IMG/VR virus record: IMGVR_UViG_3300031873_001030
Source of the DNA: a virus
Taxonomy: Duplodnaviria > Heunggongvirae > Uroviricota > Caudoviricetes
Direction: 5' to 3' (one strand)
Length of the DNA stretch: 18,824 nt
How positions within the stretch are numbered: the stretch's first letter is position 1; each line of letters opens with the position of its first letter. The notes under the pieces are model-generated. The model saw nothing but the letters and a program-made list of their open reading frames with translations. It made no database searches and was not told the DNA's origin. Positions 6,501 through 18,824 of this stretch are shown one piece after another. The position numbers and the translations under genes were made by a program.

Positions 6501-7949
6501 CCAATAGTAACAATATTTTCACCTACAAATTCTACTTATGTGAAAGGAGATATCTGGTCAAATATAACATTGGACAAAGCAGGTTCTTGGTGTGGTGCAA
6601 GTTTTGATGGTGGTTCTAATGTTACTATGACAAATTCAACTGGAAATTGGAACTATAAAAATACAACTGTAGATATAGGAACTCATAATGTAAGATTCTG
6701 GTGTAATGATACAAACAACAATTGGAATGCATCTGCTAACAATATAGTCTATTATACAATTGACAATGCAGTTCCAACATATACAAACTTTGGAAGCAGT
6801 ATTGTAAATAACACAGCAGTAAATACACTTATTTCAGACAATTATTATAATCTCTCGATAAATGATACATTTTCTGGAAATTCAATCGATACTACTCAAT
6901 GGAAAGTATATAACACGACGCTTTTCACTTCTGAAACCGGCAGGTTGTATCAATATGGAACCGTGACTTTAATAGCAGATTCAACTTATCTCACTTCAAT
7001 AACAGGAAACTATTCAGATTTTACAATGAGTGTGACATATAACCAGATTTCAGGTTCTGGTACTGTTTTTTGGTATGACACTCGATCAGGATTTTTATTC
7101 AGGGCTAACAATTATAGTTATACAGGACAACATATTTTTGCAGGAAGTGGTTATGAAGTATCAGTTGCAAGAAGAGATGTCAACCACGCTGGCGCATCTA
7201 TAATAAGCATACTAAGATATAACAACAATGGACTATATACAGAATTGAATTATTCTGCAATAACAATAACTCAAGCAACAAATTATACTCTCAATGTCAC
7301 AGTTCTTGGAAACAACATAACAGTTTATTGGAATGGTAATTTCATAGCAAATGCTACTGACAATACTTATAATGCTGGTAACATATCAATTATGGAAGTT
7401 CTAGGTGATGGGGGAGGAGTGGGAACAATAAACAATTCGTGGAGCAATTTTTTATTATATAGTCAATCTGGTCAAGTAAACACGCTAACTTATTATGCAC
7501 AATGGTCTGACAATATTCAATTAGACAAATGTATGAATTCAAGTAAAATAAATACTTCTGGAACTTGGACTAATGGAACTTGGGCATCAGTTAGTACAGG
7601 TAACTGGACTAATTATACGATAGCATTTCCAGTAGAACAAGGTAGTAACTTGACAGTAAAAATCTATTGCAATGATACATCTGGCAATATGAATGTAACA
7701 GGAACTTTATTCTGGTGGAATGTTACAAATATAGTGACAGATTCATGCACATATCCAGGTAGTGGGACTTGGTCAATAAATTGTGCTGACAATTGTGTGA
7801 TAACTGCGAATACAAACATGAATGGAAATGCAATCACATTTTATGGAACTGGAAACGCATATTTGAATGCAAACATAGTGAACATATCTCAAAGGACATT
7901 TGTTCCTAATTGTCCAGTGGTGATAGGAACTGGAAAGTTGTTTGGATAA
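3567..7949 (+). CDS. 1460-aa secreted/anchored multidomain adhesin-like glycoprotein (two DUF2341-like + lectin-like modules, Ig-like domains, C-terminal Cys motif); probable receptor-binding protein
   Basis: N-terminal hydrophobic segment. A duplicated WWNSS...NCNDIR...LDYF.DIC...FYDDFND module resembles DUF2341 followed by a ConA-like fold. An Ig-like P-x-V-T-I-F-S-P-T-N-S-T-Y...WCNDT unit follows. C-terminal DSCTY...WSINCADNC. Preceded by GAGGGA. Confidence 0.75.
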   Translation: MMIRKATVKYSLIVSVSILFLGVMFYFVQPAFSGDEGPFTISERTEYGIIENTVYLTFTDTSDKAQYIDNITFTFMDSDRTRTVTIKDFLLNQSVVIDDYGYVNKSIGKYETSKNITIGEGENSTWYMKYYDNDENEMSCVYVLLDKSCMVGIYKVIENHIEYQFLDTPNTKEKIVTNGLKIEQKVSGSVPLTKLGNAEIKITMPHILFFNLDIPYNENKYNITACSQYGCSELDPTWWNSSFKYNASISSNQIANRNESITFFMSNISGWARTQVLSNCNDIRIVNASNNEQLDYFVDICNSTNIRVGFLNKYNVSGVIANVYWNSSTAEAQNKSMRMFYDDFNDNSIDLNNWAWTVGCVNTNRVIEENGVLNATYGLVAQCALIWKGNTTALQYESVMNKLWYNYDYDYNYAGGAGMFINASLYNGHYLARAYQDATKIEIEHDNQDRGDFKIAANMQPNTWFWMYMKTNATAYIGSKWNVTNENSTQNKTVWATDNIPGKEYRGLAIPSDATVGRYVLFDDFQVWAQTYTPSWYSTASTITLGAATMGEVAPTYTDFGATITNNTGISIGQSITYYAKWNDDTTLDKCMNSSKINTTTGIGNWWNSSFIARANISSNQVANRNESITFYMSNISGWSRNQVLSNCNDIRVLNSSGNEQLDYFIDICNSTDIRIGFLNKYNVSGTIATIYWNYSTAEAQNKSMRLFYDDFNDNSVNWNNWNFTQGCTTPGTTITEQNGVLNHTTSTGGQCSLVWYSNASILQYETVMAKVKYSSTSNYLYLGIGAFQNTTTYNGIHLAQAYTHVESIEIEHDNADRGDGYVNASLTNNVWFWFMQSNDASKTRGYTWKADTENSIQNIKCLSSDVGYKYRFGIEWTGNPANSYVIYDDFQVWAAGYDPTFYATSSTLTITTKEDYGGTSSSWVNGTWASAGTGNWTNYTVKFPAEVGSNYTVKIYCNDTSGNMNVTGTLFWWNAISPIVTIFSPTNSTYVKGDIWSNITLDKAGSWCGASFDGGSNVTMTNSTGNWNYKNTTVDIGTHNVRFWCNDTNNNWNASANNIVYYTIDNAVPTYTNFGSSIVNNTAVNTLISDNYYNLSINDTFSGNSIDTTQWKVYNTTLFTSETGRLYQYGTVTLIADSTYLTSITGNYSDFTMSVTYNQISGSGTVFWYDTRSGFLFRANNYSYTGQHIFAGSGYEVSVARRDVNHAGASIISILRYNNNGLYTELNYSAITITQATNYTLNVTVLGNNITVYWNGNFIANATDNTYNAGNISIMEVLGDGGGVGTINNSWSNFLLYSQSGQVNTLTYYAQWSDNIQLDKCMNSSKINTSGTWTNGTWASVSTGNWTNYTIAFPVEQGSNLTVKIYCNDTSGNMNVTGTLFWWNVTNIVTDSCTYPGSGTWSINCADNCVITANTNMNGNAITFYGTGNAYLNANIVNISQRTFVPNCPVVIGTGKLFG
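4278..6300 (+). repeat. Internal duplication of a ~310-aa DUF2341-like/lectin module (copy 1 ~4278-5200, copy 2 ~5382-6300)
   Basis: The WWNSS starts at 4278 and 5382 (offset 1104 nt). N-terminal halves are near-identical (SSNQ.ANRNESITF.MSNISGW), while the lectin-like halves are more divergent. Confidence 0.9.
6456..7722 (+). repeat. 37-bp exact direct repeat (6456-6492 and 7686-7722) within duplicated Ig-like segments
   Basis: aatatgaatgtaacaggaactttattctggtggaatg is identical at both sites, offset 1230 nt. Confidence 0.92.
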
Positions 7950-8017
7950 TGTTCTATGGAGTCTGATGTATATGTTGAGACGGTAGCTTTCTTACCTATA
8001 CTTCCTAAACTATTCAT

Positions 8018-8251
8018 ATGGCAAAAAAGAAAAGAAAGGGTTTTGCTGATAATCTAGTTGGATTTTTCATCGGAATTATGGTAGTAGTCATAATTGCCGT
8101 ATCAGTTGTAATTCCAACAATCCAGACTCAAGTTACTGCATACGCTGCAAGTGCTAATTCGTCAGTTACAGTGGTAACACTATTGAACTTGATACCATTG
8201 TTCATAGTATTGGCAATCTTGGTTCTGGTAGTCGGTTTGATGAGATTCTAA
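8018..8251 (+). CDS. Spindle-shaped-virus major capsid protein (SSV1 VP1/VP3-like hydrophobic helical hairpin)
   Basis: 77 aa with a basic N-terminus and two hydrophobic helices. VVIPTIQTQV and TLLNLIPLFIVLAIL match my recollection of mature SSV1 VP1 (LLPVIVSQV...TLLNLVPLFYILVLI). Confidence 0.82.
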   Translation: MAKKKRKGFADNLVGFFIGIMVVVIIAVSVVIPTIQTQVTAYAASANSSVTVVTLLNLIPLFIVLAILVLVVGLMRF

Positions 8252-8311
8252 ATAACGGAATCTTAAGAACCTGATTATTAGGAAAGCTCTCTAAAAGAGA
8301 AAAATATTTTG

Positions 8312-8344
8312 AAAAACTTTCAGAGATATCTACAAAGTTTTTTT
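8312..8344 (+). terminator. Dyad AAAAACTTT-N13-AAAGTTTTT ending in a T7 run, downstream of the capsid gene: candidate terminator or protein-binding site
   Basis: 9-bp perfect arms at 8312-8320 and 8334-8342, with a T-run at 8338-8344. Oligo-T tracts act as archaeal terminators. Confidence 0.45.
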
Positions 8345-8376
8345 ATGTAGATATATTATTACACTTAGGAATAAAA

Positions 8377-8534
8377 ATGCAGGTGATAATATCAACAATA
8401 TAACAATAGATGAAGCATTGAAAGAAGGTCAAGAGGCTTACAATAGGGTGAGGAATAACAATCCGCTTGCCACAAAGAAAGTGTCGGAGAATTTTCTTCA
8501 AGAGAAAGTTCATAAAGAGTGGGTTGGAAAATAA
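8377..8534 (+). pseudogene. Start-less or frameshifted ~52-aa ORF (M)AGDNINNITIDEALKEGQEAYNRVRNNNPLATKKVSENFLQEKVHKEWVGK
   Basis: The reading frame is open from 8313 to 8534 with no in-frame ATG. The ATG at 8377 is out of frame; one extra G (ATG GCA GGT) would restore it. The stop sits just before the next gene's SD. Confidence 0.45.
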
Positions 8535-8546
8535 AAGGAGGATTTG

Positions 8547-8651
8547 ATGGCAGAAAAAGTATACAAAATGAAGACTAAAATTGGCGTAAGATATTATGTA
8601 AAAGAGAAAAGTGGAAGGTATAGGTTCGTCAAGAATCCTAATAAAAAATAG
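8547..8651 (+). CDS. 34-aa basic microprotein (MAEKVYKMKTKIGVRYYVKEKSGRYRFVKNPNKK), probable nucleic-acid binding
   Basis: Not in the ORF track. GGAGG SD at 8537-8541. Rich in K/R and Y. Confidence 0.7.
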   Translation: MAEKVYKMKTKIGVRYYVKEKSGRYRFVKNPNKK

Positions 8652-8698
8652 GAGCAATGAATATGGCAAAAAAGAAAAAGAAATAGGAATGGATATAT

Positions 8699-8857
8699 AT
8701 GGCAGATAAATGCAAGACTTGTGTTAAACTTTCCTGTAAAGGATGCAAAGTTAGTGGGTTGATGGACAGTCTTCCAGAAACTGCGACTATTTACGGACTT
8801 AACCAATTTCCAAAAGTCAAAGACCTTGAAGGTAAATTGTCTAGAAGCAAAAAATAA
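8699..8857 (+). CDS. 52-aa Cys4 zinc-finger microprotein (CKTC-x4-CKGC)
   Basis: Manual translation: MADKCKTCVKLSCKGCKVSGLMDSLPETATIYGLNQFPKVKDLEGKLSRSKK. The stop directly abuts the next ORF. Confidence 0.7.
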   Translation: MADKCKTCVKLSCKGCKVSGLMDSLPETATIYGLNQFPKVKDLEGKLSRSKK

Positions 8858-9049
8858 TTGATAGTGTTTAAAATGCCAAATTTGAATGGAAAAGAGAAAT
8901 GGTCACTGTTCGGAGGAGATAAATCAGAGAGTGAAACATATCTTGAAGGACTATCTTCGCATCTTAATGATATGGTTTATGGAGAAAAACCCAAGCCTAT
9001 AGAGCCTGCAGAAATTGCTAAGCAGGAATTGAAAAAAAAACGGAGGTAA
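8858..9049 (+). CDS. Small hypothetical protein with a basic C-terminus (start may be ATG 8873)
   Basis: ORF track. It fills the gap between flanking genes, and its 3' end carries the SD of the next gene. Confidence 0.6.
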   Translation: MIVFKMPNLNGKEKWSLFGGDKSESETYLEGLSSHLNDMVYGEKPKPIEPAEIAKQELKKKRR

Positions 9050-9055
9050 GTTAAA

Positions 9056-9196
9056 TTGGCAAAAATGACAGAAAAGGGAAAAAAATATTTCTCAAAAAAG
9101 CTGAAGACATTGCTGAAAGAGGGATATTCAAAGAAACAAGCCCTTGCAATAGATTACTCCATGTTGAGAAAAAAAGGATACAAGGCAAAAAGATAG
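9056..9196 (+). CDS. 46-aa basic helical microprotein (MAKMTEKGKKYFSKKLKTLLKEGYSKKQALAIDYSMLRKKGYKAKR), probable virion DNA-binding protein
   Basis: TTG start 8 nt after GGAGGT. The EGYSKKQALAI motif resembles the EG.S/P.KQA.AIA small basic proteins of viruses. Confidence 0.72.
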   Translation: MAKMTEKGKKYFSKKLKTLLKEGYSKKQALAIDYSMLRKKGYKAKR

Positions 9197-9207
9197 ACTT
9201 ATACCGT

Positions 9208-9220
9208 GATAAACTTATAT
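9208..9220 (+). promoter_or_regulatory. Archaeal BRE/TATA-like element (GATAAACTTATAT), probably giving a leaderless transcript for 9244
   Basis: The TTATAT core lies ~25 nt upstream of the ATG, and there is no SD. Confidence 0.5.
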
Positions 9221-9243
9221 TCACTCATGACTATTCTTATGTT

Positions 9244-9726
9244 ATGTTAAAAAAGATTATTCCTTTCTTTATAGGATTATTTCTTATAATTTCTCCAGCA
9301 CTTGCATTAGATAGGAATTGCACGACAAATGACACATTGCGTCAGTATTTTGTTTATACTGTTAATGGAGCAAATGTGACAGGCACTCAGGATTTGCATT
9401 GTACATTTGGTTGTGATTTTACAACAGACCAATGCAAGGGAGGCAATCTTCTTAATATATGGATGCTTGGAGCGATGGTTGGAGTTGCTGCTTATCTGAT
9501 GTTTGGAAGGAAGGATGCGATATTGAATATATTAGGTGCGTTGTTTATTGCAATTGTCGGTGCTTATATGATAACTTCTGGTGTGTTAATTGGATTTACA
9601 AATACACAAAGTGATAGTTTCCTTATGAAGGATTATTTTACAAATGCTCTTGGAATATTGTTCATCTGCATTGCGATATACAAGCTTGCAATGGGATGGA
9701 TACATATGAATGATGCTAGCGGATAA
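9244..9726 (+). CDS. Membrane protein: signal peptide, small Cys4 extracellular domain with sequons, 3 TM helices
   Basis: MLKK+hydrophobic+ALA signal, then C-x27-C-x3-C-x6-C with NCT/NDT/NVT sequons and three hydrophobic segments. Confidence 0.75.
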   Translation: MLKKIIPFFIGLFLIISPALALDRNCTTNDTLRQYFVYTVNGANVTGTQDLHCTFGCDFTTDQCKGGNLLNIWMLGAMVGVAAYLMFGRKDAILNILGALFIAIVGAYMITSGVLIGFTNTQSDSFLMKDYFTNALGILFICIAIYKLAMGWIHMNDASG

Positions 9727-9740
9727 GAGGTGAGAAAAAA

Positions 9741-9815
9741 ATGGCAAAAAAAGGAAAAGAAGAAAAGCAGGAGAAGGGTAGAAATCCATGGTCAGCTCCA
9801 AAAGACTGGAAATGA
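9741..9815 (+). CDS. 24-aa charged microprotein (MAKKGKEEKQEKGRNPWSAPKDWK)
   Basis: Strong SD GAGGTGA at 9727-9733. The TGA overlaps the ATG at 9812. Confidence 0.55.
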   Translation: MAKKGKEEKQEKGRNPWSAPKDWK

Positions 9816-9997
9816 ATAACATGTTAACAAAAAAGAATTCACCAATAGAAAAAATTATAGAAAGATGGAAGGACGAGGAGAATCCTAAGACTGCCTTGAA
9901 GAATGAATATAAAGCATTCCACGAATTTGATAGAAGAAATGGGATAGATAAAAAACATTTGAGATGGATGTATGGTAATAAAAAAAGTAAAAGGTAG
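9812..9997 (+). CDS. Small basic hypothetical protein (ORF-track start 9788 probably too early)
   Basis: The ATGA overlap with the upstream micro-ORF suggests a start at 9812 (or 9821). Confidence 0.55.
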   Translation: MNNMLTKKNSPIEKIIERWKDEENPKTALKNEYKAFHEFDRRNGIDKKHLRWMYGNKKSKR

Positions 9998-10310
9998 ATA
10001 CATCCTTTATTCAAGGACAAGTGGAAGGAGATTGAGCAAGCCATTGCCATCAAGAGCAGCTGCATTGAAACGCGAACGCCAGGTTCAATATTGGAAGAGA
10101 ATAAAAGGATTTGAATTTCCGATACCAATTGAACTTCTTCTTATTGTGATGATTACTGTGATACTTGGAGTAAGTGTTTTGATTCCTATATTGCAAAATG
10201 CAATCGCATCAGAACAGAATGTAGCAATACAGGGAATGTATGGTTTGATAATCTTGTTTTCAGTATTGTTTGATGTTGTAATCATAATGGCATGGTTGAA
10301 AATTTCGTAA
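9972..10310 (+). CDS. Fusion protein: basic N-terminal domain + diverged capsid-like hydrophobic hairpin (minor capsid protein candidate)
   Basis: aa 1-46 are R/K-rich (KGRYILYSRTSGRRL...ALKRERQVQYWK). aa 47-112 carry VSVLIPILQNAI...GLIILFSVL, which parallel VSVVIPTIQTQV...NLIPLFIVL of the 8018 protein. Confidence 0.7.
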   Translation: MVIKKVKGRYILYSRTSGRRLSKPLPSRAAALKRERQVQYWKRIKGFEFPIPIELLLIVMITVILGVSVLIPILQNAIASEQNVAIQGMYGLIILFSVLFDVVIIMAWLKIS

Positions 10311-10329
10311 AATAAATCTTCCAGAATAT

Positions 10330-10342
10330 AAATTTATTTAAG
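10330..10342 (+). promoter_or_regulatory. TATA-like element (AAATTTATTTAAG) upstream of speD-like gene
   Basis: AT-rich intergenic box resembling the archaeal TTTAWATA consensus, ~40 nt before the start. Confidence 0.45.
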
Positions 10343-10379
10343 TAATGAAAACAAAATGATATGATACAATTAAAATGAA

Positions 10380-10784
10380 ATGATAGAAAAAGGAACACAG
10401 GCTTGCATTGATTTGTTTGGTTGTAATGAGAATATATTAAATGATTCTATATTCTTGAAAAATCTGATTGCGAAAGCTGTGATAGATTCTGATTTTGTGC
10501 TTGTTGAAAAGATAAAGATGCATCAGTTCACTCCATATGGAGTGACTGGTTATGCATTGCTTGCTTCCTCACATATAGCAATCCATACATGGCCAGAATA
10601 TAACTTCGCATCGATAGATATTTTTGCATGCGACTCAAGAAAAAAAGTCAATACTGCTATCAAGACAATCATAAATGGACTGAATCCTAAGAAAGTGAAA
10701 TCGTTGATATTTAGCAGGGGGTTTATATGTCAGAATGTGAACATGAATGGATTGGTTCTAGAACCTGTCGCAAATGCGGCATAA
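10380..10784 (+). CDS. speD: S-adenosylmethionine decarboxylase proenzyme family (class 1B, pyruvoyl-dependent)
   Basis: Motifs DLFGC, HQFTPYGVTG, LLAS|SHIAIHTWPEY and ASIDIFAC match the prokaryotic AdoMetDC signature. Actual substrate is uncertain. Confidence 0.92.
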   Translation: MIEKGTQACIDLFGCNENILNDSIFLKNLIAKAVIDSDFVLVEKIKMHQFTPYGVTGYALLASSHIAIHTWPEYNFASIDIFACDSRKKVNTAIKTIINGLNPKKVKSLIFSRGFICQNVNMNGLVLEPVANAA

Positions 10785-10811
10785 CAGATAAGTATGCAGA
10801 AGAGATGATTA

Positions 10812-10994
10812 GTGATGATTTTTGCGCCGAGAAAAGAGAAAATAGATTATGACTATATTGAAATCTATAAAGGAAGAATCCATAGGATAAGGCATCTTTT
10901 TTCAGACTCTATTTCTGGTGATAAATATATAAAAATCAAAAGTCTAATGTATATGAGAAAAAATGATTTCACATATCAACCGAGATTGTTTTAG
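10812..10994 (+). CDS. Small hypothetical protein
   Basis: 60-aa ORF whose TAG abuts the ATG at 10995. Confidence 0.5.
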   Translation: MMIFAPRKEKIDYDYIEIYKGRIHRIRHLFSDSISGDKYIKIKSLMYMRKNDFTYQPRLF

Positions 10995-11168
10995 ATGAAA
11001 AGAAAGAACTTCGATAATGCTATTGAAAGTGGGCATAACATGCTGATAATGATAATGCTATTCATAGGGTTGGATGTCGGACTTAAGGCTTATGAAATTG
11101 TAGTATGGATTTTTCCACTTATTGCAAATATAATGAGAAGGATTGGCAAGATGAGGTTCTTAGAATGA
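10995..11168 (+). CDS. 57-aa membrane-associated microprotein (MKRKNFDNAIESGHNMLIMIMLFIGLDVGLKAYEIVVWIFPLIANIMRRIGKMRFLE)
   Basis: Manual translation, coupled to both neighbours (TAGATG and ATGA). Confidence 0.6.
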   Translation: MKRKNFDNAIESGHNMLIMIMLFIGLDVGLKAYEIVVWIFPLIANIMRRIGKMRFLE

Positions 11169-11347
11169 AAACGAAAAAATTACAAAGAGCGCATTGTCCA
11201 AATTGTGTATTGAGTTATGACTTGAGCAAGTTTGCATCAAAAAAAATTGAGAAAAAGAAATTTGGCAAGCAATTGTATTGGCGCTGGCTGATATTTTCCA
11301 TATGGATTACATCAATTTTGTTAATAATTTTTGGATTATATTGTTGA
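11165..11347 (+). CDS. 60-aa protein with a CPNC knuckle and C-terminal TM helix (track start 11105 probably too early)
   Basis: ATGA overlap at 11165. Basic middle region, hydrophobic C-terminus. Confidence 0.6.
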   Translation: MKTKKLQRAHCPNCVLSYDLSKFASKKIEKKKFGKQLYWRWLIFSIWITSILLIIFGLYC

Positions 11348-11357
11348 AAGTATATTT
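11346..11357 (+). promoter_or_regulatory. BRE/TATA-like element (GAAAGTATATTT), probable leaderless start for 11382
   Basis: TATATT lies ~27 nt upstream of the ATG, and there is no SD. Confidence 0.45.
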
Positions 11358-11381
11358 TATGACAAATACTTAGCTTTATAA

Positions 11382-11936
11382 ATGTCTGGAGTCTCATATA
11401 TATTTATGTCAGCTGACGGTTCTATATCTAATACACCTCAAAGTGGAGTTGGAGGAAATATTTCTCCTCAACCTCCAACTCCTATCTATTCTCAACCGCC
11501 AAGAGAATGGGAAAATTATGAGGGTTCAAGGACTCAGGGAATAATGAAAACTGAGTTTGACCAGAAGGTATATCTTGTCGATGTTGACAAGAGGCTTGAT
11601 TTTACAAATCTGATTTCACTCGTGACAAAGGAATTGGATACTTCTTTTATAAATGACCAGGACTTGAAGATTTTCTATCAGATAAATTTTGAGAATGTCT
11701 TGGAATGGGCAGCTATGGGACTTATTGATTTGGCAAAAATCAGGCTTGCAAACTTATTTTCCCAACTCAAATTAGAAAAATCAGTAGGTGGATTTGAAAG
11801 GATTCTGCAAGGAGCCACACTTACTGGAACAGTCGTCGCACCTCTTCCTTCAAAGAAGAGCTTATGGCCAGTCGAATTCATGAAGAAACAGGAAGGTCCA
11901 AGGACTATAGCACAAAGAATCGGGGAAATAGGATAA
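11382..11936 (+). CDS. Hypothetical protein with a Pro/Ser/Gly-rich N-terminus and a helical domain (LKLEKSVGGFERILQ)
   Basis: 184-aa ORF in the operon orientation. Confidence 0.75.
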   Translation: MSGVSYIFMSADGSISNTPQSGVGGNISPQPPTPIYSQPPREWENYEGSRTQGIMKTEFDQKVYLVDVDKRLDFTNLISLVTKELDTSFINDQDLKIFYQINFENVLEWAAMGLIDLAKIRLANLFSQLKLEKSVGGFERILQGATLTGTVVAPLPSKKSLWPVEFMKKQEGPRTIAQRIGEIG

Positions 11937-11955
11937 TAAAAAAGGAGTGATAAAT

Positions 11956-12075
11956 ATGAAAAAGAAAGAATTCAGTAAAGAAAAAAAGGAACCAATTACA
12001 TGGCATGATTTCATGGGACAGGTACATGATGATGTTATCAGGCCAGAAAGGATGAGACCAGAGGTATTGGATTGA
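11956..12075 (+). CDS. 39-aa charged microprotein (MKKKEFSKEKKEPITWHDFMGQVHDDVIRPERMRPEVLD)
   Basis: SD GGAGTGA at 11944-11950. The TGA overlaps the TTG of the next gene. Confidence 0.65.
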   Translation: MKKKEFSKEKKEPITWHDFMGQVHDDVIRPERMRPEVLD

Positions 12076-12299
12076 AAATAATACTAAAGTCCTTTCCTGA
12101 AAATTGGGAAAAGGAAAAATCAATGGTAAAGCCATGCACAGTAAGAAGATTGGATGGCAGGGATACCATAGAGATAATCAATACTGAAACTGGTGAGAAG
12201 ATAGAGAAACACATAACAGATATTTCAGTATGGAAAAATGATATAATAATTTCATTCTCCATGTGGCCAGATGGATTTGTAAAGAGAGGTAAAAAATAA
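12072..12299 (+). CDS. Short ASCH/PUA-like domain protein
   Basis: LKSFPENWEKEKSMVKPCTVRRLD resembles the ASCH-family LK..P..F......K...E/T.R..D motif. TTG start. Confidence 0.5.
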   Translation: MKIILKSFPENWEKEKSMVKPCTVRRLDGRDTIEIINTETGEKIEKHITDISVWKNDIIISFSMWPDGFVKRGKK

Positions 12300-13298
12300 A
12301 TGGCAACTGACATGCTGCCGATGTATTTCATGTCGGCAATGGGTGTATTGGTTCTTGGTATTTTTTTCCTTCTTCTAAGAAAAAAGAAGAAAAAGGAAAA
12401 ATTAAAGCTTACTAGTGCATTGCCAAAACCTATCGAACAACCTGTATCTGTATGGACACCACCAATTGGTTTTGGCATGGGCATGACACAACAGCAAGTT
12501 ATAGCAGAACCAGTAGCTTTAAGTGACTTGGGAAAGACCAGCATATTCAACAGAGTAAAAATATCGATGGACGCGCTGATATTTGCATGTGTATTTGTAG
12601 GTTTCCTTTCTGTATTGATTTTTTATCTGAGTAAAGCGGCTTTTATCGCAGCACTTATAAGCGGCATGATGTTCATACCTATTGGTGTTATAATCGGTGC
12701 GATGTTTGCTTCTAATTTTAGAGTCAAAATAATGAGAAGGTTGACAAGAAAGAATTATGGAATGGTAAAGTTCATACATTCAAACAAGCTGATAAAACCA
12801 GTCATCGCTAATCTTGACAGTGATATAGTAAGATTTGCAGATGGTGTATACATACTTGACAAGCAGACAATAAAGAGAGAAGGTACAGAAACTCCATCTT
12901 CAGATATCATACAGGAAAATGTGATAAAATTTGAGGAAGGCATTCCTACAATCTATTATGACTTGACTGACATAATGCCAGTAGATTTTACAAGCAGCGT
13001 GAAAAAAATAGAAGGAGAACCTGACAGGTTCAGGCTGCCATCTCAAGTATCAGCTACTTTGAACAAGGAGATAGCAGTTGAGAAAGCCAAGATAATGAAG
13101 GCATTCAGGACAAGACAATCCATGTTCATGCTGATAATAATAGCATTGATAGTTATCAATGTCTATTTCAGTTACAGCACATATACAAACAACAAGAACA
13201 TGATGATAAAAATGGATAATGTAAACAGTGGTATGAATGCATTAAGAGGCTTGATACCATCGCAGCCTGTTGCAACTGCCACAACAGGAGGAGGATAA
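12300..13298 (+). CDS. 332-aa multi-pass membrane protein with a central soluble domain; putative virion assembly/egress factor
   Basis: TM1, poly-K, TM pair, soluble domain (EGIPTIYYDL..IMPVDF), C-terminal TM and a short coil. SD GAGGT upstream. Confidence 0.75.
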   Translation: MATDMLPMYFMSAMGVLVLGIFFLLLRKKKKKEKLKLTSALPKPIEQPVSVWTPPIGFGMGMTQQQVIAEPVALSDLGKTSIFNRVKISMDALIFACVFVGFLSVLIFYLSKAAFIAALISGMMFIPIGVIIGAMFASNFRVKIMRRLTRKNYGMVKFIHSNKLIKPVIANLDSDIVRFADGVYILDKQTIKREGTETPSSDIIQENVIKFEEGIPTIYYDLTDIMPVDFTSSVKKIEGEPDRFRLPSQVSATLNKEIAVEKAKIMKAFRTRQSMFMLIIIALIVINVYFSYSTYTNNKNMMIKMDNVNSGMNALRGLIPSQPVATATTGGG

Positions 13299-13300
13299 TA

Positions 13301-13567
13301 ATGTTGACAAATATACTGATGACAAATGATGGAATGAAACATGGGATAAAATGGGGATTGATAATTGTAGCTGTAATATTAGGAATGACATCATTGGCAA
13401 AGATTATGTCATTTGTGATGGACAACGAATTGATAAAAATAATTTTCAATTCCATCTTTGCAGGAGTAGGGATAACGATAGGAACTTACTTTGCAAATAA
13501 GATGCTTATCGACAGGATGGAAAAGTTAAAGCTGATAGGCAAGAAAAAGGAGGCAACAAAATCATGA
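13301..13567 (+). CDS. Small two-TM membrane protein with a basic C-terminal tail
   Basis: Two hydrophobic helices. GGAGGA SD upstream. Confidence 0.75.
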   Translation: MLTNILMTNDGMKHGIKWGLIIVAVILGMTSLAKIMSFVMDNELIKIIFNSIFAGVGITIGTYFANKMLIDRMEKLKLIGKKKEATKS

Positions 13568-13692
13568 GTGAAGCAGTGGTATATAATGACGACTTATCAA
13601 TGGATAAGGTCATACAAATCATAGGAAATGAGATGGTCATTTTCAATGACAATCTGGAACTTGAAAAAATAATACAATTGAGGGATGACTGA
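13564..13692 (+). CDS. 42-aa acidic microprotein with an internal duplication (MSEAVVYNDDLSMDKVIQIIGNEMVIFNDNLELEKIIQLRDD)
   Basis: Fits exactly between ATGA and TGATG overlaps. AAGGAGG SD upstream. Confidence 0.7.
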   Translation: MSEAVVYNDDLSMDKVIQIIGNEMVIFNDNLELEKIIQLRDD

Positions 13693-14156
13693 TGGCAGAT
13701 GACCAAGTAGTCAGAATGTACAATGTTCTGCCAGCAATAGAACAGACTAAGATATTGATAATAGAAAGGTTGAAAATATTGTTCGATGGCATAAATATTT
13801 TGTTCCAAAACAAGCTGATGTCAAAGAAAGATGAAGAGATTATAGCGCTTGTAAAAGCTACTTCAATATCCATATATCTTATGCTGAAACCTAAGATAGT
13901 AGAATATGTTGAACAGAGGATTAGAATAAGACCAGATGCTCTCCAATCAGACATGATGATAAAGGAATTGACAAAAATGATTACCAAGATAGAAAGTTCT
14001 ATAGCAAATCCTAGCGCAATGACAATAGAAGATGCATTGTACTATTCGGATGTCATAAATATATTCTGTCATGATTATGGAATAACAAGAATAACATACT
14101 TCTCAGGCACTGTCAGTGTGCCAGATGAGAAGTCAATATACAACGTGAAAGTATGA
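13692..14156 (+). CDS. 154-aa alpha-helical hypothetical protein (C-terminal YGITRI motif)
   Basis: ORF track, translationally coupled on both sides. Confidence 0.75.
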   Translation: MADDQVVRMYNVLPAIEQTKILIIERLKILFDGINILFQNKLMSKKDEEIIALVKATSISIYLMLKPKIVEYVEQRIRIRPDALQSDMMIKELTKMITKIESSIANPSAMTIEDALYYSDVINIFCHDYGITRITYFSGTVSVPDEKSIYNVKV

Positions 14157-14788
14157 AAAAAGAAATAATCCCATCATTAATGATGGGATTTGCAATGGTA
14201 TTGGCACTAGCATATGTAGGAATAGCTAGTGCTGACACTTGCGTACCTTTGGATGACATAAACAACCTTACAACAAATACATCAGTAAATCTGACATCTA
14301 TATTCATAAGCTTATGTGACAAGATTGCCTCACTGAACACCAGCTACAATAATCTGAATGCAAACTATAGCAATCTAAGCACAAACTACAATGGATTGAA
14401 TATAAAATACATTAGCTTGCTAAATAACATAACAAGCAACAGCACATCAGCAATCATGCTTGGAAATGTCTCATACATATATTACAACATGAATGTGACT
14501 GACCATTACAACAAATTGTCAGTCTACAATTCATCGATATCAAATGCATTATACAGCATGAACTCTGCAGTTGCAAATCTTCCAAATGTCTATCTGAAAC
14601 TTTCAGACTATACTGCATATGCTGCCAGTACAGCAGTGGCTATCGCTAATACAAATATAAAGATAGATTCTGTAAATGCAAGCATAATAGGCATAGATGA
14701 CAGGATTCCAAAAGATTACAACATTTACTTCATGATGGGATTTGTTGTATTGCTCTTAGTAATTGCAGCATTAGTATTCATTAAATAA
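14153..14788 (+). CDS. Membrane-anchored coiled-coil glycoprotein (signal peptide, N-rich heptads, C-terminal TM)
   Basis: Signal ending ASA, then LNTSYNNLNANYSNLSTNYNGLN heptads with many sequons and a C-terminal hydrophobic anchor. Confidence 0.75.
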   Translation: MKKEIIPSLMMGFAMVLALAYVGIASADTCVPLDDINNLTTNTSVNLTSIFISLCDKIASLNTSYNNLNANYSNLSTNYNGLNIKYISLLNNITSNSTSAIMLGNVSYIYYNMNVTDHYNKLSVYNSSISNALYSMNSAVANLPNVYLKLSDYTAYAASTAVAIANTNIKIDSVNASIIGIDDRIPKDYNIYFMMGFVVLLLVIAALVFIK

Positions 14789-14813
14789 CCTTCCTATACG
14801 GTAAGGTGTTAGG

Positions 14814-15185
14814 ATGGTAGAGAAATTCAGAGACGAAGTAAGTGGTGAAGAAATGGTCAGGATAAAGTGTAATATATGCAAGGAAAGCAAGAACTTGAAA
14901 TCTGAGACTTATCAGAAAATGCTCAAGCGTTTCAGCTTCACAAGGTCTTTCCTTTTTGGTATGACCCATGGTATAGAAGCTGTCCTTACCAACAAGCCTA
15001 TACAGGCGACATTATCCAAAGAAGAAATGGAAAGGGCATTTCAAAATGTCTATGTATGCAAGGAATGTAAAAACAACAAGGAAGAGACACTGAAGATAAC
15101 AGAATCCATATCCAGAATTTTGAATCTTCCAATCATACCTAAGGACATTGATAAAGAACGTGGTAATAATGAAAGTAAAAAATAA
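14814..15185 (+). CDS. Zinc-binding protein (CNIC...CKEC)
   Basis: Two CxxC pairs about 60 aa apart. Confidence 0.7.
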   Translation: MVEKFRDEVSGEEMVRIKCNICKESKNLKSETYQKMLKRFSFTRSFLFGMTHGIEAVLTNKPIQATLSKEEMERAFQNVYVCKECKNNKEETLKITESISRILNLPIIPKDIDKERGNNESKK

Positions 15186-15220
15186 GATAGAACTTATAAA
15201 AAAGGCATGGGTGGAACTAG

Positions 15221-15640
15221 ATGCCGATTGACCAACTAGCAATGAACGCAACTGGCACAACTGTACTAAATACTTTGGTGATAGGAGGTCCATTGTTGAT
15301 ATGCATAGCTGTAATAGTCTTTATTGCAATCTTCATATCGATACCATTCATCTATAGAAGAGTGATAAGGATATTCGGCTGGCTAGGAATGACATTCGTA
15401 TATTTCCTGAAAGGACTTGCTGGATTGCTTTCTTTAACTTTGATATATATTGCACTGAAAGGAGGAGCTGAAAATGCCACAAGCATCTTGACAGTCTTGA
15501 AATGGATAGGCATAGCTATCATCTGTTATGCAGCAATAGCAAGCGCAGGCTACATGCTTACATATGCCTGGAAAAAGTTATGGAGACTTTCTGGAAATGA
15601 CAAGTTCCAGAAACGACCAAAGGGAGAAAGAAAGAAATGA
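15221..15640 (+). CDS. Three-TM membrane protein
   Basis: Three long hydrophobic segments and a basic tail. Confidence 0.75.
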   Translation: MPIDQLAMNATGTTVLNTLVIGGPLLICIAVIVFIAIFISIPFIYRRVIRIFGWLGMTFVYFLKGLAGLLSLTLIYIALKGGAENATSILTVLKWIGIAIICYAAIASAGYMLTYAWKKLWRLSGNDKFQKRPKGERKK

Positions 15641-15789
15641 TTATAATACCGCAACCATGGGCAGACATACTATCTTATGGAGTAATAGTGCTTGCAGTAG
15701 GAATAATGGCATGGTTCATTTGGCAGCAACCAATCTGCTTCAGGACAGAAGAAAAGGAAAAGGAAAAGGGGAGAAGTGATAAGAAATGA
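15637..15789 (+). CDS. 50-aa single-TM microprotein (MIIIPQPWADILSYGVIVLAVGIMAWFIWQQPICFRTEEKEKEKGRSDKK)
   Basis: ATGA overlaps at both ends. It replaces the shadow ORF 15564..15779. Confidence 0.7.
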   Translation: MIIIPQPWADILSYGVIVLAVGIMAWFIWQQPICFRTEEKEKEKGRSDKK

Positions 15790-16316
15790 GCAAAACACTA
15801 TTCATAATAGCATTGCTTGTAGCGATTAGCATCATACCAATAGGAGCTATCTTCCAGAACACATGGCTTGACATAGGACTTGGAGCATTCGCAATGCTTC
15901 TTTTTATAATCCACATGAAGACAAAGAGCAATTCAGAATACGAATCAAGGGAGAAAGAACCGACTTATGAACAGGAAGGCAATGTCATAGAACAACCAGA
16001 AGAGCCAGAAGTGCTAGGCATAAGGAAAAGGACAAAAGCAAAAGTAAGAAAGAAAGAAGAAGAAAGTGGAGGAAGCGGATTTCCTTTCATAGGTACTTTC
16101 ATAGGAGTAGCTGTAGCTATCATAGTAGGTGTGGGTGTTGTAATACCAGTCATAAACAACCAGGTGACAAACATGACAAATTCAGTGGAATTAGGCAATT
16201 CTACTAGTATAACTTCATCAGTAAGTACTTTACTAAGTATTGTTCCAATCTTGATGGTATTGGCTATAATAATATCTGTAGTAGGAATGGTTGGTAGGTT
16301 TGGAAGTGGTGTATAA
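15786..16316 (+). CDS. Fusion protein: N-terminal TM hairpin + charged linker + C-terminal capsid-like hairpin (aa 99-176)
   Basis: The C-terminal VVIPVINNQV...TLLSIVPILMVLAII closely parallels the 8018 capsid protein. The linker is E/P-rich, then K/R-rich. Confidence 0.78.
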   Translation: MSKTLFIIALLVAISIIPIGAIFQNTWLDIGLGAFAMLLFIIHMKTKSNSEYESREKEPTYEQEGNVIEQPEEPEVLGIRKRTKAKVRKKEEESGGSGFPFIGTFIGVAVAIIVGVGVVIPVINNQVTNMTNSVELGNSTSITSSVSTLLSIVPILMVLAIIISVVGMVGRFGSGV

Positions 16317-16492
16317 TGCGTTATTGGATTTACAAAGGTACAAGGAACGGTATGGAAGTGTTCAGATGCAACGGATGCGGTTTTGAAAAATGCATAATGC
16401 ATGCAGCAAGCGGAAGAAGAAGACCCAAGAAAGACGGTTCACCAACTGTATTTCATTGTCCAATGTGCAAAGAAGAAATAAACTATAGGTAA
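16316..16492 (+). CDS. 58-aa zinc-ribbon protein (CNGC...CPMC)
   Basis: Manual translation: MRYWIYKGTRNGMEVFRCNGCGFEKCIMHAASGRRRPKKDGSPTVFHCPMCKEEINYR. TAATG overlap. Confidence 0.75.
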   Translation: MRYWIYKGTRNGMEVFRCNGCGFEKCIMHAASGRRRPKKDGSPTVFHCPMCKEEINYR

Positions 16493-16495
16493 TCC

Positions 16496-16864
16496 ATGTT
16501 ACAAAAGTTCGATTGGAGAGGCTTGCCATATGTTCTCCCTCTGATTTTCTTAATTGCAATATCAATACCTGGGGTGATATTTGTTGGAGGAATATTCCAT
16601 GAATGGCTTCATAGTCAGGATTTTGAGACTGAATCCGTATGTATCGACTATACTAACAACTCTTTCATGTACATTACCAGTGCCTACATATACCTTGGCA
16701 ATGAGACCAACAATCACACAAATTTTGACGAAAGAAGCCTTTCCGTATCCAGACATTTCGAGGTATATGCCCTTGAAGGAATAGTAATCGGGATATTATT
16801 TACGCTAATCCTACTATCTTCATTGCTATTGACCAGATTCATAGTGACAAAACATGTGATATGA
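16496..16864 (+). CDS. Small membrane protein with a HExxH motif; putative membrane zinc metalloprotease (M50-like/zincin, minimal)
   Basis: HEWLH (16598-16612) at the end of TM1. HFEVYALE precedes TM2. Confidence 0.55.
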   Translation: MLQKFDWRGLPYVLPLIFLIAISIPGVIFVGGIFHEWLHSQDFETESVCIDYTNNSFMYITSAYIYLGNETNNHTNFDERSLSVSRHFEVYALEGIVIGILFTLILLSSLLLTRFIVTKHVI

Positions 16865-17568
16865 TGCTAAAGACAAACAAGTTGAAACTTGAAAGAATCC
16901 CAATCTGGAAAATAAAAACATCCAACTTCAATATACGAGCCAAGATAGAACCAGACCAAAACCTAAAAAGAAATCTTTATGAAAAAGGACAAATAAACCC
17001 TCTGATAACTCTGAATGACTATACACTGATTTCAGGGTACAGAAGATATGCCGAATTGAAAAGGTTACGTGCAAGAAAAGTGTGGATACTGAAAGTATCA
17101 TATTTGAAAAAGTCAAACGTATTGGAATATCAATTATCTGAAATATTGCATTCAAAAGATATCAATCCTATGGACAAAGGGCGTGCATTCAAGAGACTTA
17201 TGGATTTGAAGAAATTATCAGTACAAAAGCTTTCAAAAATCCTGAACATCCCAAAACACACATTAGAATGGCATCTGAAACTGTTAAAACTTCCAAAAGC
17301 CATCAAGTCAGACATATCTGAAGGAAGGCTCAAGCCATATGGGATAAGGATGCATAGACTATATGGAAAGAAGAGGATACGGACAAGGAGTGACTTCATA
17401 CTATCTTCAAATGATATTCTCTTCGATTCATTCCTGAAAAGGATAGCTGCAATGCGGACCTTGATACCGCAAATCGAATATACAGAAAACCAAAGCAAAG
17501 AGGCAAAAATACTTATTAAGGAACTGCTAACTATCATTGAAAAGAACGGAGGTGCAAATCATGTTTAG
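16861..17568 (+). CDS. parB: ParB/Spo0J-like protein (ParB-N domain + HTH)
   Basis: N-I-R, GQINPL (box I), LISGYRR (GxxR box II), KDINPMD and the HTH-like LSVQKLSKILNIPKHTLEWHLKLL. Confidence 0.82.
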   Translation: MMLKTNKLKLERIPIWKIKTSNFNIRAKIEPDQNLKRNLYEKGQINPLITLNDYTLISGYRRYAELKRLRARKVWILKVSYLKKSNVLEYQLSEILHSKDINPMDKGRAFKRLMDLKKLSVQKLSKILNIPKHTLEWHLKLLKLPKAIKSDISEGRLKPYGIRMHRLYGKKRIRTRSDFILSSNDILFDSFLKRIAAMRTLIPQIEYTENQSKEAKILIKELLTIIEKNGGANHV

Positions 17569-17680
17569 CCAATTAGCCAGAAAGGGAACAATCTCATTCT
17601 CACTGAAGAAGATTGTAGTCCTGATAATATTATTTGCAATAGCTATAATCGCATATCTGATAATTACAAAGAAGAAATAA
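17561..17680 (+). CDS. 39-aa single-TM microprotein (MFSQLARKGTISFSLKKIVVLIILFAIAIIAYLIITKKK)
   Basis: SD GGAGGTG at 17548-17554. One hydrophobic helix flanked by lysines. Confidence 0.7.
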   Translation: MFSQLARKGTISFSLKKIVVLIILFAIAIIAYLIITKKK

Positions 17681-17702
17681 GATATCAAAAACAAGGTATT
17701 AC

Positions 17703-18824
17703 ATGACAAGAAGCGATTTCCTAAAAATACTAGAGCCGTCTGAAGAGAAAGAAGAAAAACCAGAGAAACAACCAGAGGAAACTATCATCCAAAAACCCGA
17801 AGAAGATGTTAATGAGGAAAAAAAAGATGAAATAGAGGAACAACCATCTCCAAGTCCAATTCCTGAAGTAACCATAGAGCTAATAGAAGACACAAGCAAA
17901 ATAGAAAAGTACAAACCTATAATTGAAGACATGGTGATAAAAAAAAGCGACTTGAAACAAGTCGATGAAGTTACCTTAGAAGACAAACTGATAAGCAAGA
18001 AACAACCAGACTGGAAACTAGCCGCCGAAGCTGCAAAAACTGTGCATGTAGAGCTTTCTGAAGACGAACTTGACAGACTATCCATGTCTCTTTCCGAGCA
18101 AACCAAGGAAGATTTGATGAACACTATACGCAGCCTAAACATAACCGACGTCCGCATTGAACTAGACTCGCGTGCAATCAAAATAATGACCAACATAGTC
18201 AACAAATGCAAAGAACTAAACGTCGACTGGTTCATAGCCATAGTGGGAGGTGAAGGCGTAGGCAAGTCAACCCTAGCCTTAAACTTATTCGCCCTCGTCT
18301 GCAAAATGAATAATGTAAATCCAATAGAGATACTTTTAAGAACATTGATATATGATGAAGACGAACTGTTAAGATTCATATCCTCCGTAGACCCGAGAGA
18401 GAAGTTTCTTGCATTAGACCTAGATGAAGGAGCCAACGTCCTGTTCAATCGTGAAAGCATGCAAACCAAGCGAAGCTACATACTAAAATTCTTCAACGTC
18501 ATGAGATTCCTAAATGCAATAGTCTTCATACCAACCCCAAACATCAAATTCCTTGATAAGAATGTAAAAGCCCACAGAATAAAGTCCATATTCTATATAC
18601 CAAGCAGAGGAACATATTGGTTTTACGATAAAGAACAAGTAGACCGAATGCTAGCCAACGAGACAAGCAAGAAATGGTATTGGGTCGAACCCAAAGCAGT
18701 AGGGTCATTCTCCGTAAACAAGGAACTAGAATCAATCGTAAACCTAATCAAGGAAAACTATATACGAATGTTCAGCGAAAAAGTGAAAACCTTCCTCCAA
18801 TCCGAAGAAAAAAAGAAATACAAA
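17703..18824 (+). CDS. P-loop ATPase with an acidic N-terminal extension (3'-truncated); putative packaging/assembly ATPase
   Basis: The frame is open from ATG 17703 to the window end (374 codons). Walker A AIVGGEGVGKST (GGEGVGKST at 18246-18272) and Walker B FLALDLDEG (18405-18431), followed by IPTPNIKFLD. Confidence 0.9.
   Translation, partial: MTRSDFLKILEPSEEKEEKPEKQPEETIIQKPEEDVNEEKKDEIEEQPSPSPIPEVTIELIEDTSKIEKYKPIIEDMVIKKSDLKQVDEVTLEDKLISKKQPDWKLAAEAAKTVHVELSEDELDRLSMSLSEQTKEDLMNTIRSLNITDVRIELDSRAIKIMTNIVNKCKELNVDWFIAIVGGEGVGKSTLALNLFALVCKMNNVNPIEILLRTLIYDEDELLRFISSVDPREKFLALDLDEGANVLFNRESMQTKRSYILKFFNVMRFLNAIVFIPTPNIKFLDKNVKAHRIKSIFYIPSRGTYWFYDKEQVDRMLANETSKKWYWVEPKAVGSFSVNKELESIVNLIKENYIRMFSEKVKTFLQSEEKKKYK

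Follow-up and report, generated by a model that had tools for sequence, protein, structure and literature searches.

Why should the structural module of one spindle-shaped virus encode three scattered capsid hairpins, two of them behind long and mutually unlike N-terminal parts, and do those parts stay in the virion? We investigated this question in an 18,824-nt stretch of the IMG/VR record IMGVR_UViG_3300031873_001030 (hereafter the window), which makes up the structural module of a large, spindle-shaped virus of archaea, an uncultured one from sediment. The three proteins concerned, all encoded on the + strand, are P0001 (8018–8251; 77 amino acids [aa]), a stand-alone hairpin of the major-capsid type; P0002 (9972–10310; 112 aa), an in-frame fusion of a small basic domain with a divergent capsid hairpin; and P0003 (15786–16316; 176 aa), in which two N-terminal transmembrane helices and a charged, disordered linker precede a capsid hairpin. 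This count of three covers the window; the viral contig is 92 kb, and a protein collection records P0003 on a contig of 92,011 bp. Both longer open reading frames (ORFs) are real and conserved, and the joint between extension and hairpin appears to coincide with the site at which the VP1 coat protein of SSV1 (Sulfolobus spindle-shaped virus 1) is cut.

Three capsid hairpins behind different N-terminal parts

In P0001, a basic leader of 8 aa ends in Lys-Gly (G8/F9 at 8039–8044), and in the hairpin that starts at 8042, helix 1 contains an I-P motif, the loop an N-S-S sequon, and helix 2 a P-L-F motif. Its assignment draws on Pfam, phrog and family-profile matches and on orthologues of 64–94% identity in eight metagenome contigs; moreover, the protein is unchanged in a variant strain, where the sole listed difference within the ORF (8191 G>A) was read as synonymous. 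P0002, recognized by BLASTP and by a family profile hidden Markov model (HMM), places a basic β-hairpin-plus-helix domain (residues 1–46; 9972–10109) before a hairpin of residues 47–112 (10110–10307), with the joint G46/F47 (10107–10112) in the context K-R-I-K-G/F-E-F. The AlphaFold2 model of its hairpin consists of two helices (residues 53–79 and 84–111), the first of which keeps the I-P motif.

P0003 opens with a predicted membrane anchor of two helices (residues 3–50; 15792–15935), continues with a linker (residues 51–98; 15936–16079) in which the motif S-E-Y-E-S-R is followed in turn by an acidic segment rich in Pro, a patch of basic residues, and E-E-E-S-G-G-S-G, and ends with a hairpin (residues 99–176; 16080–16313) that carries N-M-T and N-S-T loop sequons. 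At its joint, G98/F99 (16077–16082; S-G/F-P-F), the Gly is present but no basic residue stands at position −2. AlphaFold2 placed helices at residues 3–19, 26–50, 100–134, and 143–174, with predicted local distance difference test (pLDDT) scores of only 53–59 at residues 56–99. The P0001 sequence has the same two-helix layout as the other two hairpins, and all three agree with the family pattern of two long hydrophobic helices and a short connecting loop in a mature protein of ~65–85 aa. The N-terminal extensions ahead of them are 8 (P0001), 46 (P0002), and 98 aa (P0003) long.

P0001 matched the Pfam model His1_capsid at E = 3.6e-5 (24.1 bits, under the cut-off of 27) and phrog_11172 ("virion structural protein") at E = 2.9e-6, and the C-terminal 80 residues of P0003 matched phrog_11172 at E = 7.5e-8 and His1_capsid at E = 0.008; P0002 matched no curated model in Pfam or phrog, our own family HMM being the only model to detect it. 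The P0001 and P0003 hairpins are 48% identical over ~70 aa, with Gly-Phe before helix 1, the helix-1 I-P, T-L-L...P in helix 2, and a terminal R-F in common. P0002 is 30% identical to P0001 (BLASTP E = 5e-6), and BLASTP returned no alignment between P0002 and P0003.

Because hydrophobic proteins align easily, three controls were run. In shuffles that kept the leader, helix 1, loop, and helix 2 as separate segments, the P0001–P0002 alignment scored z = 5 (its real score was reached by 1 of 5000 shuffles) and the P0001–P0003 alignment z = 9.4. An HMM of the outside family, built from 36 short outside matches and containing no window sequence, picked exactly three of the 174 six-frame ORFs of the window, namely P0001 (93 bits), P0003 (66 bits), and P0002 (22 bits), the next ORF scoring 7; against the same model, the isolated P0002 hairpin reached 23.9 bits, and the best of 5000 segment-preserving shuffles 17.5. 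Finally, the window and 18 related loci supplied 1566 natural six-frame ORFs, of which 113 have at least two transmembrane-like segments; the best non-family ORF scored 8.3 bits, and all ORFs above 9 bits were recognizable family members. Set against random two-transmembrane proteins, the comparison on which the preliminary description of this DNA had staked its proposal, P0002 and P0003 therefore outscored the shuffles, and P0002 also the natural decoys.

When a P0001-plus-P0003 profile was run exhaustively with HMMER against 1.84 billion representatives, 79 matches were obtained at E ≤ 0.001. When a 28-member family profile, P0001 and P0003 included, was compared with solved structures, one was matched: VP1 of SSV19 (7XDI_A; E = 1.5e-9). 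Among the 28 members, 18 match phrog_11172 and 8 match His1_capsid, and a Pro near the end of helix 1 and another near the start of helix 2 are invariant in their alignment. P0001 and P0003 have both, whereas P0002 has the first only, with Ile in place of the second; its loop also contains no N-glycosylation sequon, although N-x-T/S occurs in the loop of most family members. Judged by these profiles and alignments, the three hairpins share ancestry with the family of which SSV19 VP1 is the solved member. ORFs, HMM matches, and alignments alike bear out the early view that these are true paralogues with mutually unrelated N-terminal parts; the single motif that had been read through all three holds in P0001 and P0003, but in P0002 only for its first half (V-L-I-P-I-L-Q-N), since the second-helix Pro and the L-A-I are missing. 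P0002 is also the longest end branch of the family tree (2.68). As the tree has too few columns, with 31 of its 60 forks unresolved, we make no claim on the order of duplication.

Structure-based searches gave generic helical hairpins only with VIA-align against 48,161 PDB chains (Z ≤ 7.9, the basic N-terminal domain being barely covered), and in Foldseek the best PDB row was 7xdi_A, but at E = 2.

Further candidate relatives were noted. Just upstream of P0003, a 139-aa protein with three transmembrane segments (15221–15640, +) starts N-A-T-G-T-T-V-L-N-T-L...G-P-L-L and later reads E-N-A-T-S-I-L-T-V-L, like the family consensus of loop plus helix 2; it scored only 6.2 bits against the family HMM and may be a fourth, degenerate hairpin derivative. 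Likewise, two-transmembrane proteins of 114–137 aa at L001:7044–7388 and L005:2224–2634 (7.5–8.3 bits), with the motifs I-I-P...N-A-T...F-L-P-F or F-M-P-I, may represent a very divergent further hairpin class.

The fusions and the modularity of the hairpin family

Residues 1–45 of P0002 correspond to a free-standing gene of 45–47 aa that tblastn located in four related contigs (L003:1090–1227, L006:11065–11205, L009:2118–2252, and L014:7970–8110), in each of which a Lys-rich tail is followed by the stop codon. The L014 protein ends in R-K-G-stop, and this Gly aligns with G46 of P0002, as does G8 of P0001; a further 46-aa homologue, P0082, is 57% identical to the domain. In L009, which is syntenic, the order is capsid gene, loop-insert paralogue, homologues of the genes at 8699 and 9244, basic gene, and S-adenosylmethionine decarboxylase (AdoMetDC) gene, with no hairpin between the last two. 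Because the domain stands alone in relatives, has no hairpin behind it in L009, and in L014 ends at a Gly that aligns with G46, P0002 is a lineage-specific in-frame join made exactly at the module boundary, and the suspected fusion is a real one.

Contigs from other sediment studies (X2, X3, and X4) are 97–98% identical to the window over 7928–16400. After the listed differences of the variant strain are applied, the P0002 frame stays open: 16 substitutions lead to five conservative residue changes, and a 6-nt deletion at 10122, two codons past the joint, is in frame. The hairpin itself differs between the two strains by two substitutions in 201 nt. As independent contigs keep the fused frame open, P0002 is not an assembly error. 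A cluster of 10 substitutions in 27 nt (10071–10097; X2–X4), mostly synonymous and including swaps of Arg codons, lies at the end of the N-terminal domain, and a 36-nt insertion occurs at 11103/11104 in runs X2, X3, and X5; together they suggest a recombination patch. A DNA-level comparison of the three joints revealed no common tract beyond the codons themselves.

The N-terminal domain of P0002 is modelled with strands at residues 2–6 and 9–13 and a helix at 28–46 (pLDDT about 95). Its structural neighbours in the Atlas include orphan proteins of ~45 aa along with terminal domains from phage integrases, portals, and XkdF-type proteins (TM scores of 0.8–0.9 over ~46 residues). Foldseek rows, which serve as leads only, included λ integrase in the PDB (E = 5–8) and, among Swiss-Prot models, RalR, the ICEBs1 integrase N-terminus, CedA, and UPF0339 (E = 1.8–4); with all rows at E ≥ 1.8, they amount to a weak fold likeness to CedA, RalR, YegP-like proteins, and the arm-binding domains of integrases. 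Pfam searches with the N-terminal parts of P0002 and P0003 alone gave nothing significant. A DNA-binding role for this modelled domain is a reasonable lead. A very basic 34-aa ORF at 8548–8652 (+), which starts M-A-E-K-V-Y-K-M, contains a strand-like G-R-Y-R-F motif that recalls the start of the domain.

P0003 belongs to a recurrent class of anchor, charged linker, and hairpin, which was found in at least eight other clusters (P0030, P0032, P0058, P0078, and P0083–P0086, the last four added by profile search). Their anchors are single helices, as opposed to two in P0003, and pairwise BLAST between the N-terminal part of P0003 and the other anchored forms is weak (E = 0.09–0.9); in a MAFFT alignment, however, Y-E-x-x-R and E-P-E motifs in the linker are common to P0003, P0032, P0030, P0058, and P0078. 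In the P0058 group, the N-terminal extension is highly conserved, more so than the hairpin. P0003-like genes in other viruses adjoin LemA, Band_7, or integrase genes; in L001, L002, L004, L005, and L016–L018, N-extended hairpin genes lie beside LemA (PF04011) and Band_7 (PF01145), and sometimes an integrase.

Fusion is a habit of the family. Of 83 family representatives, ~34 are plain, 20 carry a loop insert, 22 are N-extended (≥25 aa), 4 are C-extended, and 2 are tandem; the N-terminal extensions are of basic, acidic, Cys-rich, and transmembrane types, and the loop inserts are large and glycosylation-rich. With passengers at either terminus as well as within the loop, the modularity that had been surmised from the window is real, and the capsid hairpin is a mobile, reusable module. 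The close relatives L007 and L009–L013 have a plain capsid gene with a loop-insert paralogue directly after it. Such paralogues (L007:3686–4261, L009:535–1047, L010:4699–5214, L013:1173–1589, and L018:1555–2118) hold an N-x-T/S-rich insert of 90–110 aa in the outward-facing loop and usually lie directly 3′ of the plain gene. The two adjacent paralogues of SSV1, which had been offered as a contrast to the present virus, therefore have a counterpart among its own relatives. The window has no loop-insert paralogue, and 8252–8698 contains tiny ORFs only.

The Gly joint and the fate of the extensions

An N-terminal extension is nothing new in this family, as SSV1 VP1 is made with one of 65 aa that is cut off, the virion form starting at Glu66 (PMC5748691). 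Across SSV isolates, this extension varies from 15 to 66 aa and is poorly conserved; in SSV1, neither the extension nor the five residues that precede the cut can be dispensed with, and E66Q and E66A mutants stay infectious (PMC5748691). Its Table 2 primers translate to P-K-L-T-K-G/E-A-T-N-I-G around the cut in SSV1 and to ...T-R-G in SSV9 (PMC5748691). The corresponding sequence is R-R-A-E-G in SSV19 and R-R-G-E-G in the fusellovirus-like P0051.

In the window, Lys-Gly precedes the joint in P0001 and P0002 and Ser-Gly in P0003. From the residue after this Gly to the conserved Gly of helix 1 there are 11 positions in both P0051 and P0001 (K-G/F9...G19), and the window joints match P0051 and SSV1 in the ~10–11 residues that separate [KR]-[GA] from the helix-1 Gly. 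Owing to this shared spacing, the Gly/Phe joints of P0001, P0002, and P0003 are, in position, the probable homologues of the mapped SSV1 cut (Lys-Gly/Glu66). The motif is not confined to these proteins: 46 of 79 hairpins have [KR]x0-1G within the 13 residues upstream of helix 1, and in the metagenomic tandem proteins P0040 and P0067, each of the two hairpins is preceded by its own R-R-G or [KR]-G-Q motif, so that they look like natural polyproteins of two coat subunits. The N-extended P0004, P0008, P0009, and P0030 nest in a clade of plain P0001-type capsids (support 94/92).

Because the motif is widespread, the tandems repeat it, and N-extended forms nest among plain capsids, we favour the reading that P0002 and P0003 are precursors cut at the Gly joint, to which we would give roughly an even chance. 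As inferred from SSV19, the hairpins would insert in the membrane of the host such that the loop faces outward and both termini stay in the cytoplasm. The N-terminal parts would act as pro-regions, and a membrane-associated peptidase, either a host enzyme of the prepilin-peptidase type or a viral one, would cut at the conserved Gly before helix 1, leaving one major and two minor hairpins of ~66–79 aa that co-assemble. From P0002, the cut would also release a free basic, DNA-binding-like protein of 46 aa, of the same extent as the stand-alone orthologue, and from P0003 a two-helix membrane fragment. Until then, the extensions may tie these copies to the membrane, postpone or seed assembly, and bring the basic protein to the assembly site. 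That a cut in P0002 would regenerate a protein which relatives encode separately speaks for such processing. Since an N-terminal extension is known and cut in SSV1, and the joints align with that site, removal of the N-terminal parts is at least as likely as their retention in the shell.

Several observations weigh against processing. In P0003, S-G takes the place of [KR]-G at the joint, and the residue after it is Phe in all three window proteins, not the Glu that is universal in Fuselloviridae. SSV leaders are poorly conserved, but in the P0058 group conservation of the extension exceeds that of the hairpin, which argues for an independent function of the extension. Neither the confidently folded P0002 domain nor the P0003 extension with its two transmembrane helices resembles a short class III leader. 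Moreover, by analogy with SSV19, whose Arg-rich tail is treated as part of the virion, the basic residues that precede the Gly could serve in DNA binding or as a topology signal and be retained, instead of marking a cleavage site.

As to the enzyme, a Pfam scan of the 18 larger window ORFs gave no Peptidase_A24 match, and the literature searched contained no link between a prepilin peptidase and spindle-virus capsid maturation. Two genes downstream of P0003, a small membrane protein (16496–16864, +) has H-E-x-x-H right after its first transmembrane helix; motif and position are kept in L014:13187–13552, and genes of matching size lie in the same order in the P0032 contig. No family match was found for this protein, which its motif makes a candidate viral maturation protease.

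The strongest alternative, a tentative one that we hold to be clearly less probable than not, is that of the preliminary description: the hairpin serves as a general-purpose carrier, and P0002 and P0003 remain uncut as minor capsid subunits with their N-terminal parts on the inner face. P0002 would then put a DNA-binding domain on the inner shell wall and so tether the genome to the shell, and P0003 would join the shell to an anchor that is membrane-embedded or lipid-associated, for instance at one end of the virion. The inner surface of SSV19 is formed by the N-terminus of helix 1 and both protein termini, and the Arg-rich N-terminal tail is treated as part of the virion, with a proposed DNA contact (PMC9351363). 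Since this topology puts both ends in the cytoplasm, N-terminal additions would lie on the side that becomes the virion interior, which holds whether or not they are cut. In the loop-insert (~20 clusters) and C-extended (4 clusters) forms, the hairpin does act as a carrier, because an N-terminal cut cannot remove those passengers. Retention would also suit the basic, folded P0002 domain with its weak likeness to DNA-binding β-sheet-plus-helix domains, and the strong conservation of the P0058-group extensions. The reading frame through the P0002 joint is under purifying selection, but this is equally expected of a precursor. Furthermore, the positional homology of the joint to the SSV1 cut, the repeated [KR]G motif of the tandem hairpins, and the four relatives that use the basic protein untethered, with the same Gly end, all argue for cutting instead.

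We consider it unlikely that P0002, and perhaps P0003, have left the capsid altogether and that, during budding, their hairpins serve as plain membrane anchors which tether a DNA-binding domain, or else a factor for assembly or egress, to the host membrane. Such a change of function would fit the P0002 hairpin, with its missing second-helix Pro and loop sequon, its long branch, and its 22 bits against 66–93 for the other two, and would fit the neighbouring LemA and Band_7 membrane-organizing genes of P0003-like genes elsewhere. The P0003 hairpin, however, keeps every hallmark of the family together with its close identity to P0001, and the P0002 hairpin is nearly unchanged between strains and keeps the helix-1 I-P. 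Lastly, chance similarity of hydrophobic two-transmembrane proteins, or long ORFs created by misassembly, would account for the missing Pfam match of P0002 and the missing P0002–P0003 alignment, but this extremely improbable explanation was rejected on the shuffles, the natural decoys that P0002 outscores, and the same fused frames in independent contigs from other samples.

Setting and comparison with known systems

The window is ~34% G+C, with nearly all genes on the + strand, and opens with two very large proteins rich in Asn-x-Thr/Ser, after which P0001, P0002, and P0003 follow. At 10380–10784 (+) lies a viral S-adenosylmethionine decarboxylase (Pfam AdoMet_dc; E = 1e-29), to which the AdoMetDC at L009:2320–2730, directly 3′ of the basic-protein gene, is 71.5% identical. 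L014, a 15-kb Logan contig syntenic with 3567–18824, contains in order a giant protein, the basic 46-aa gene, homologues of 11382, 12300, 13692, 14153, 14814, 16316, and 16496, and an ATPase, and no capsid hairpin was found anywhere in its 15 kb. IMG/VR scans with P0001, P0003, and alignment A4 gave no relatives, tblastn against a collection of phage records (INPHARED/GenBank) gave no match, and a word-indexed protein search with P0003 matched P0003 only. Exact look-ups of the ParB-like protein, the 1460-aa protein, and P0003, meant to extend the view along the viral contig, yielded no record.

How spindle-shaped virions assemble, what the SSV1 coat extension does, and which protease removes it (PMC5748691) are questions on which these natural variants bear. 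They present the same joint after 8, 46, or 98 quite different residues, a fusion whose halves are separate in sister viruses, and tandem hairpins with repeated joints. If P0002 and P0003 are uncut, theirs would be the first case of cargo built into capsid subunits of a spindle virus, and they would explain how an SSV1-type coat protein manages a genome of ~90 kb. If the extensions are retained, the hairpin would offer a natural scaffold for display on both faces of an archaeal virus shell, inside through the N- and C-termini and outside through the loop.

The literature that we searched describes spindle viruses with one or two capsid paralogues, and contained neither three dispersed copies, nor a fusion of a capsid hairpin with an independent basic protein, nor a conserved transmembrane-anchored class. 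P0001 and the P0003 hairpin both find their best Pfam match in His1 VP21 of the Halspiviridae (His1_capsid, PF25665), which has the same length and two-transmembrane layout, but Halspiviridae have a single capsid protein, compared with three hairpins here. Wyrdviridae and the nanohaloarchaeal DNSV, mesophilic spindle viruses that are uncultured and known from metagenomes, encode one capsid protein or two paralogues, the hairpin capsid gene being duplicated in some of these viruses; the descriptions consulted mention no fused or N-extended copies, and give genomes of ~20 kb, as against the 92-kb contig in this study.

Archaeal class III (prepilin-type) signal peptides, which peptidases of the PibD/FlaK/EppA type cut, have the same basic residues, a Gly at −1, and a hydrophobic helix next. 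Many hairpin family members have K-G-Q, which is the pattern of EppA substrates. The P0001 leader fits the class III pattern except for 4–5 mixed residues after the Gly. In P0002 and P0003 the Gly is present, but leaders of 46 aa (folded) and 98 aa (with two transmembrane helices) far exceed all known class III leaders in length. Window helices begin 4–6 residues after the Gly, and the hairpins have a second transmembrane helix, which class III pilins lack.

SSV1 VP2, a small basic DNA-binding virion protein encoded near the capsid genes, may be a functional analogue of the P0002 N-terminal domain and its orthologues; we know of no case in which VP2 is fused to VP1 or VP3. A close parallel is provided by VP1 and VP3 of the Fuselloviridae (SSV1 and SSV19; PF06281; 7XDI chain A), which form the same two-helix hydrophobic hairpin, likewise occur as paralogous copies in one genome, and have, in VP1, a variable N-terminal extension cut after [KR]-G/A just before helix 1. 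Their conserved Pro in each helix and glycosylated outer loop are paralleled in P0001 and P0003 by both Pro residues and by loop sequons. The window proteins differ from fusellovirus VP1 in sequence, identity being low and the relationship detectable at profile level only. They also depart from the fuselloviruses in having (i) three copies over 8 kb instead of two adjacent ones, (ii) Phe rather than Glu after the joint, (iii) one extension that is a folded basic domain, encoded as a separate gene in relatives, and (iv) another that combines a two-helix anchor with a charged linker of ~50 aa.

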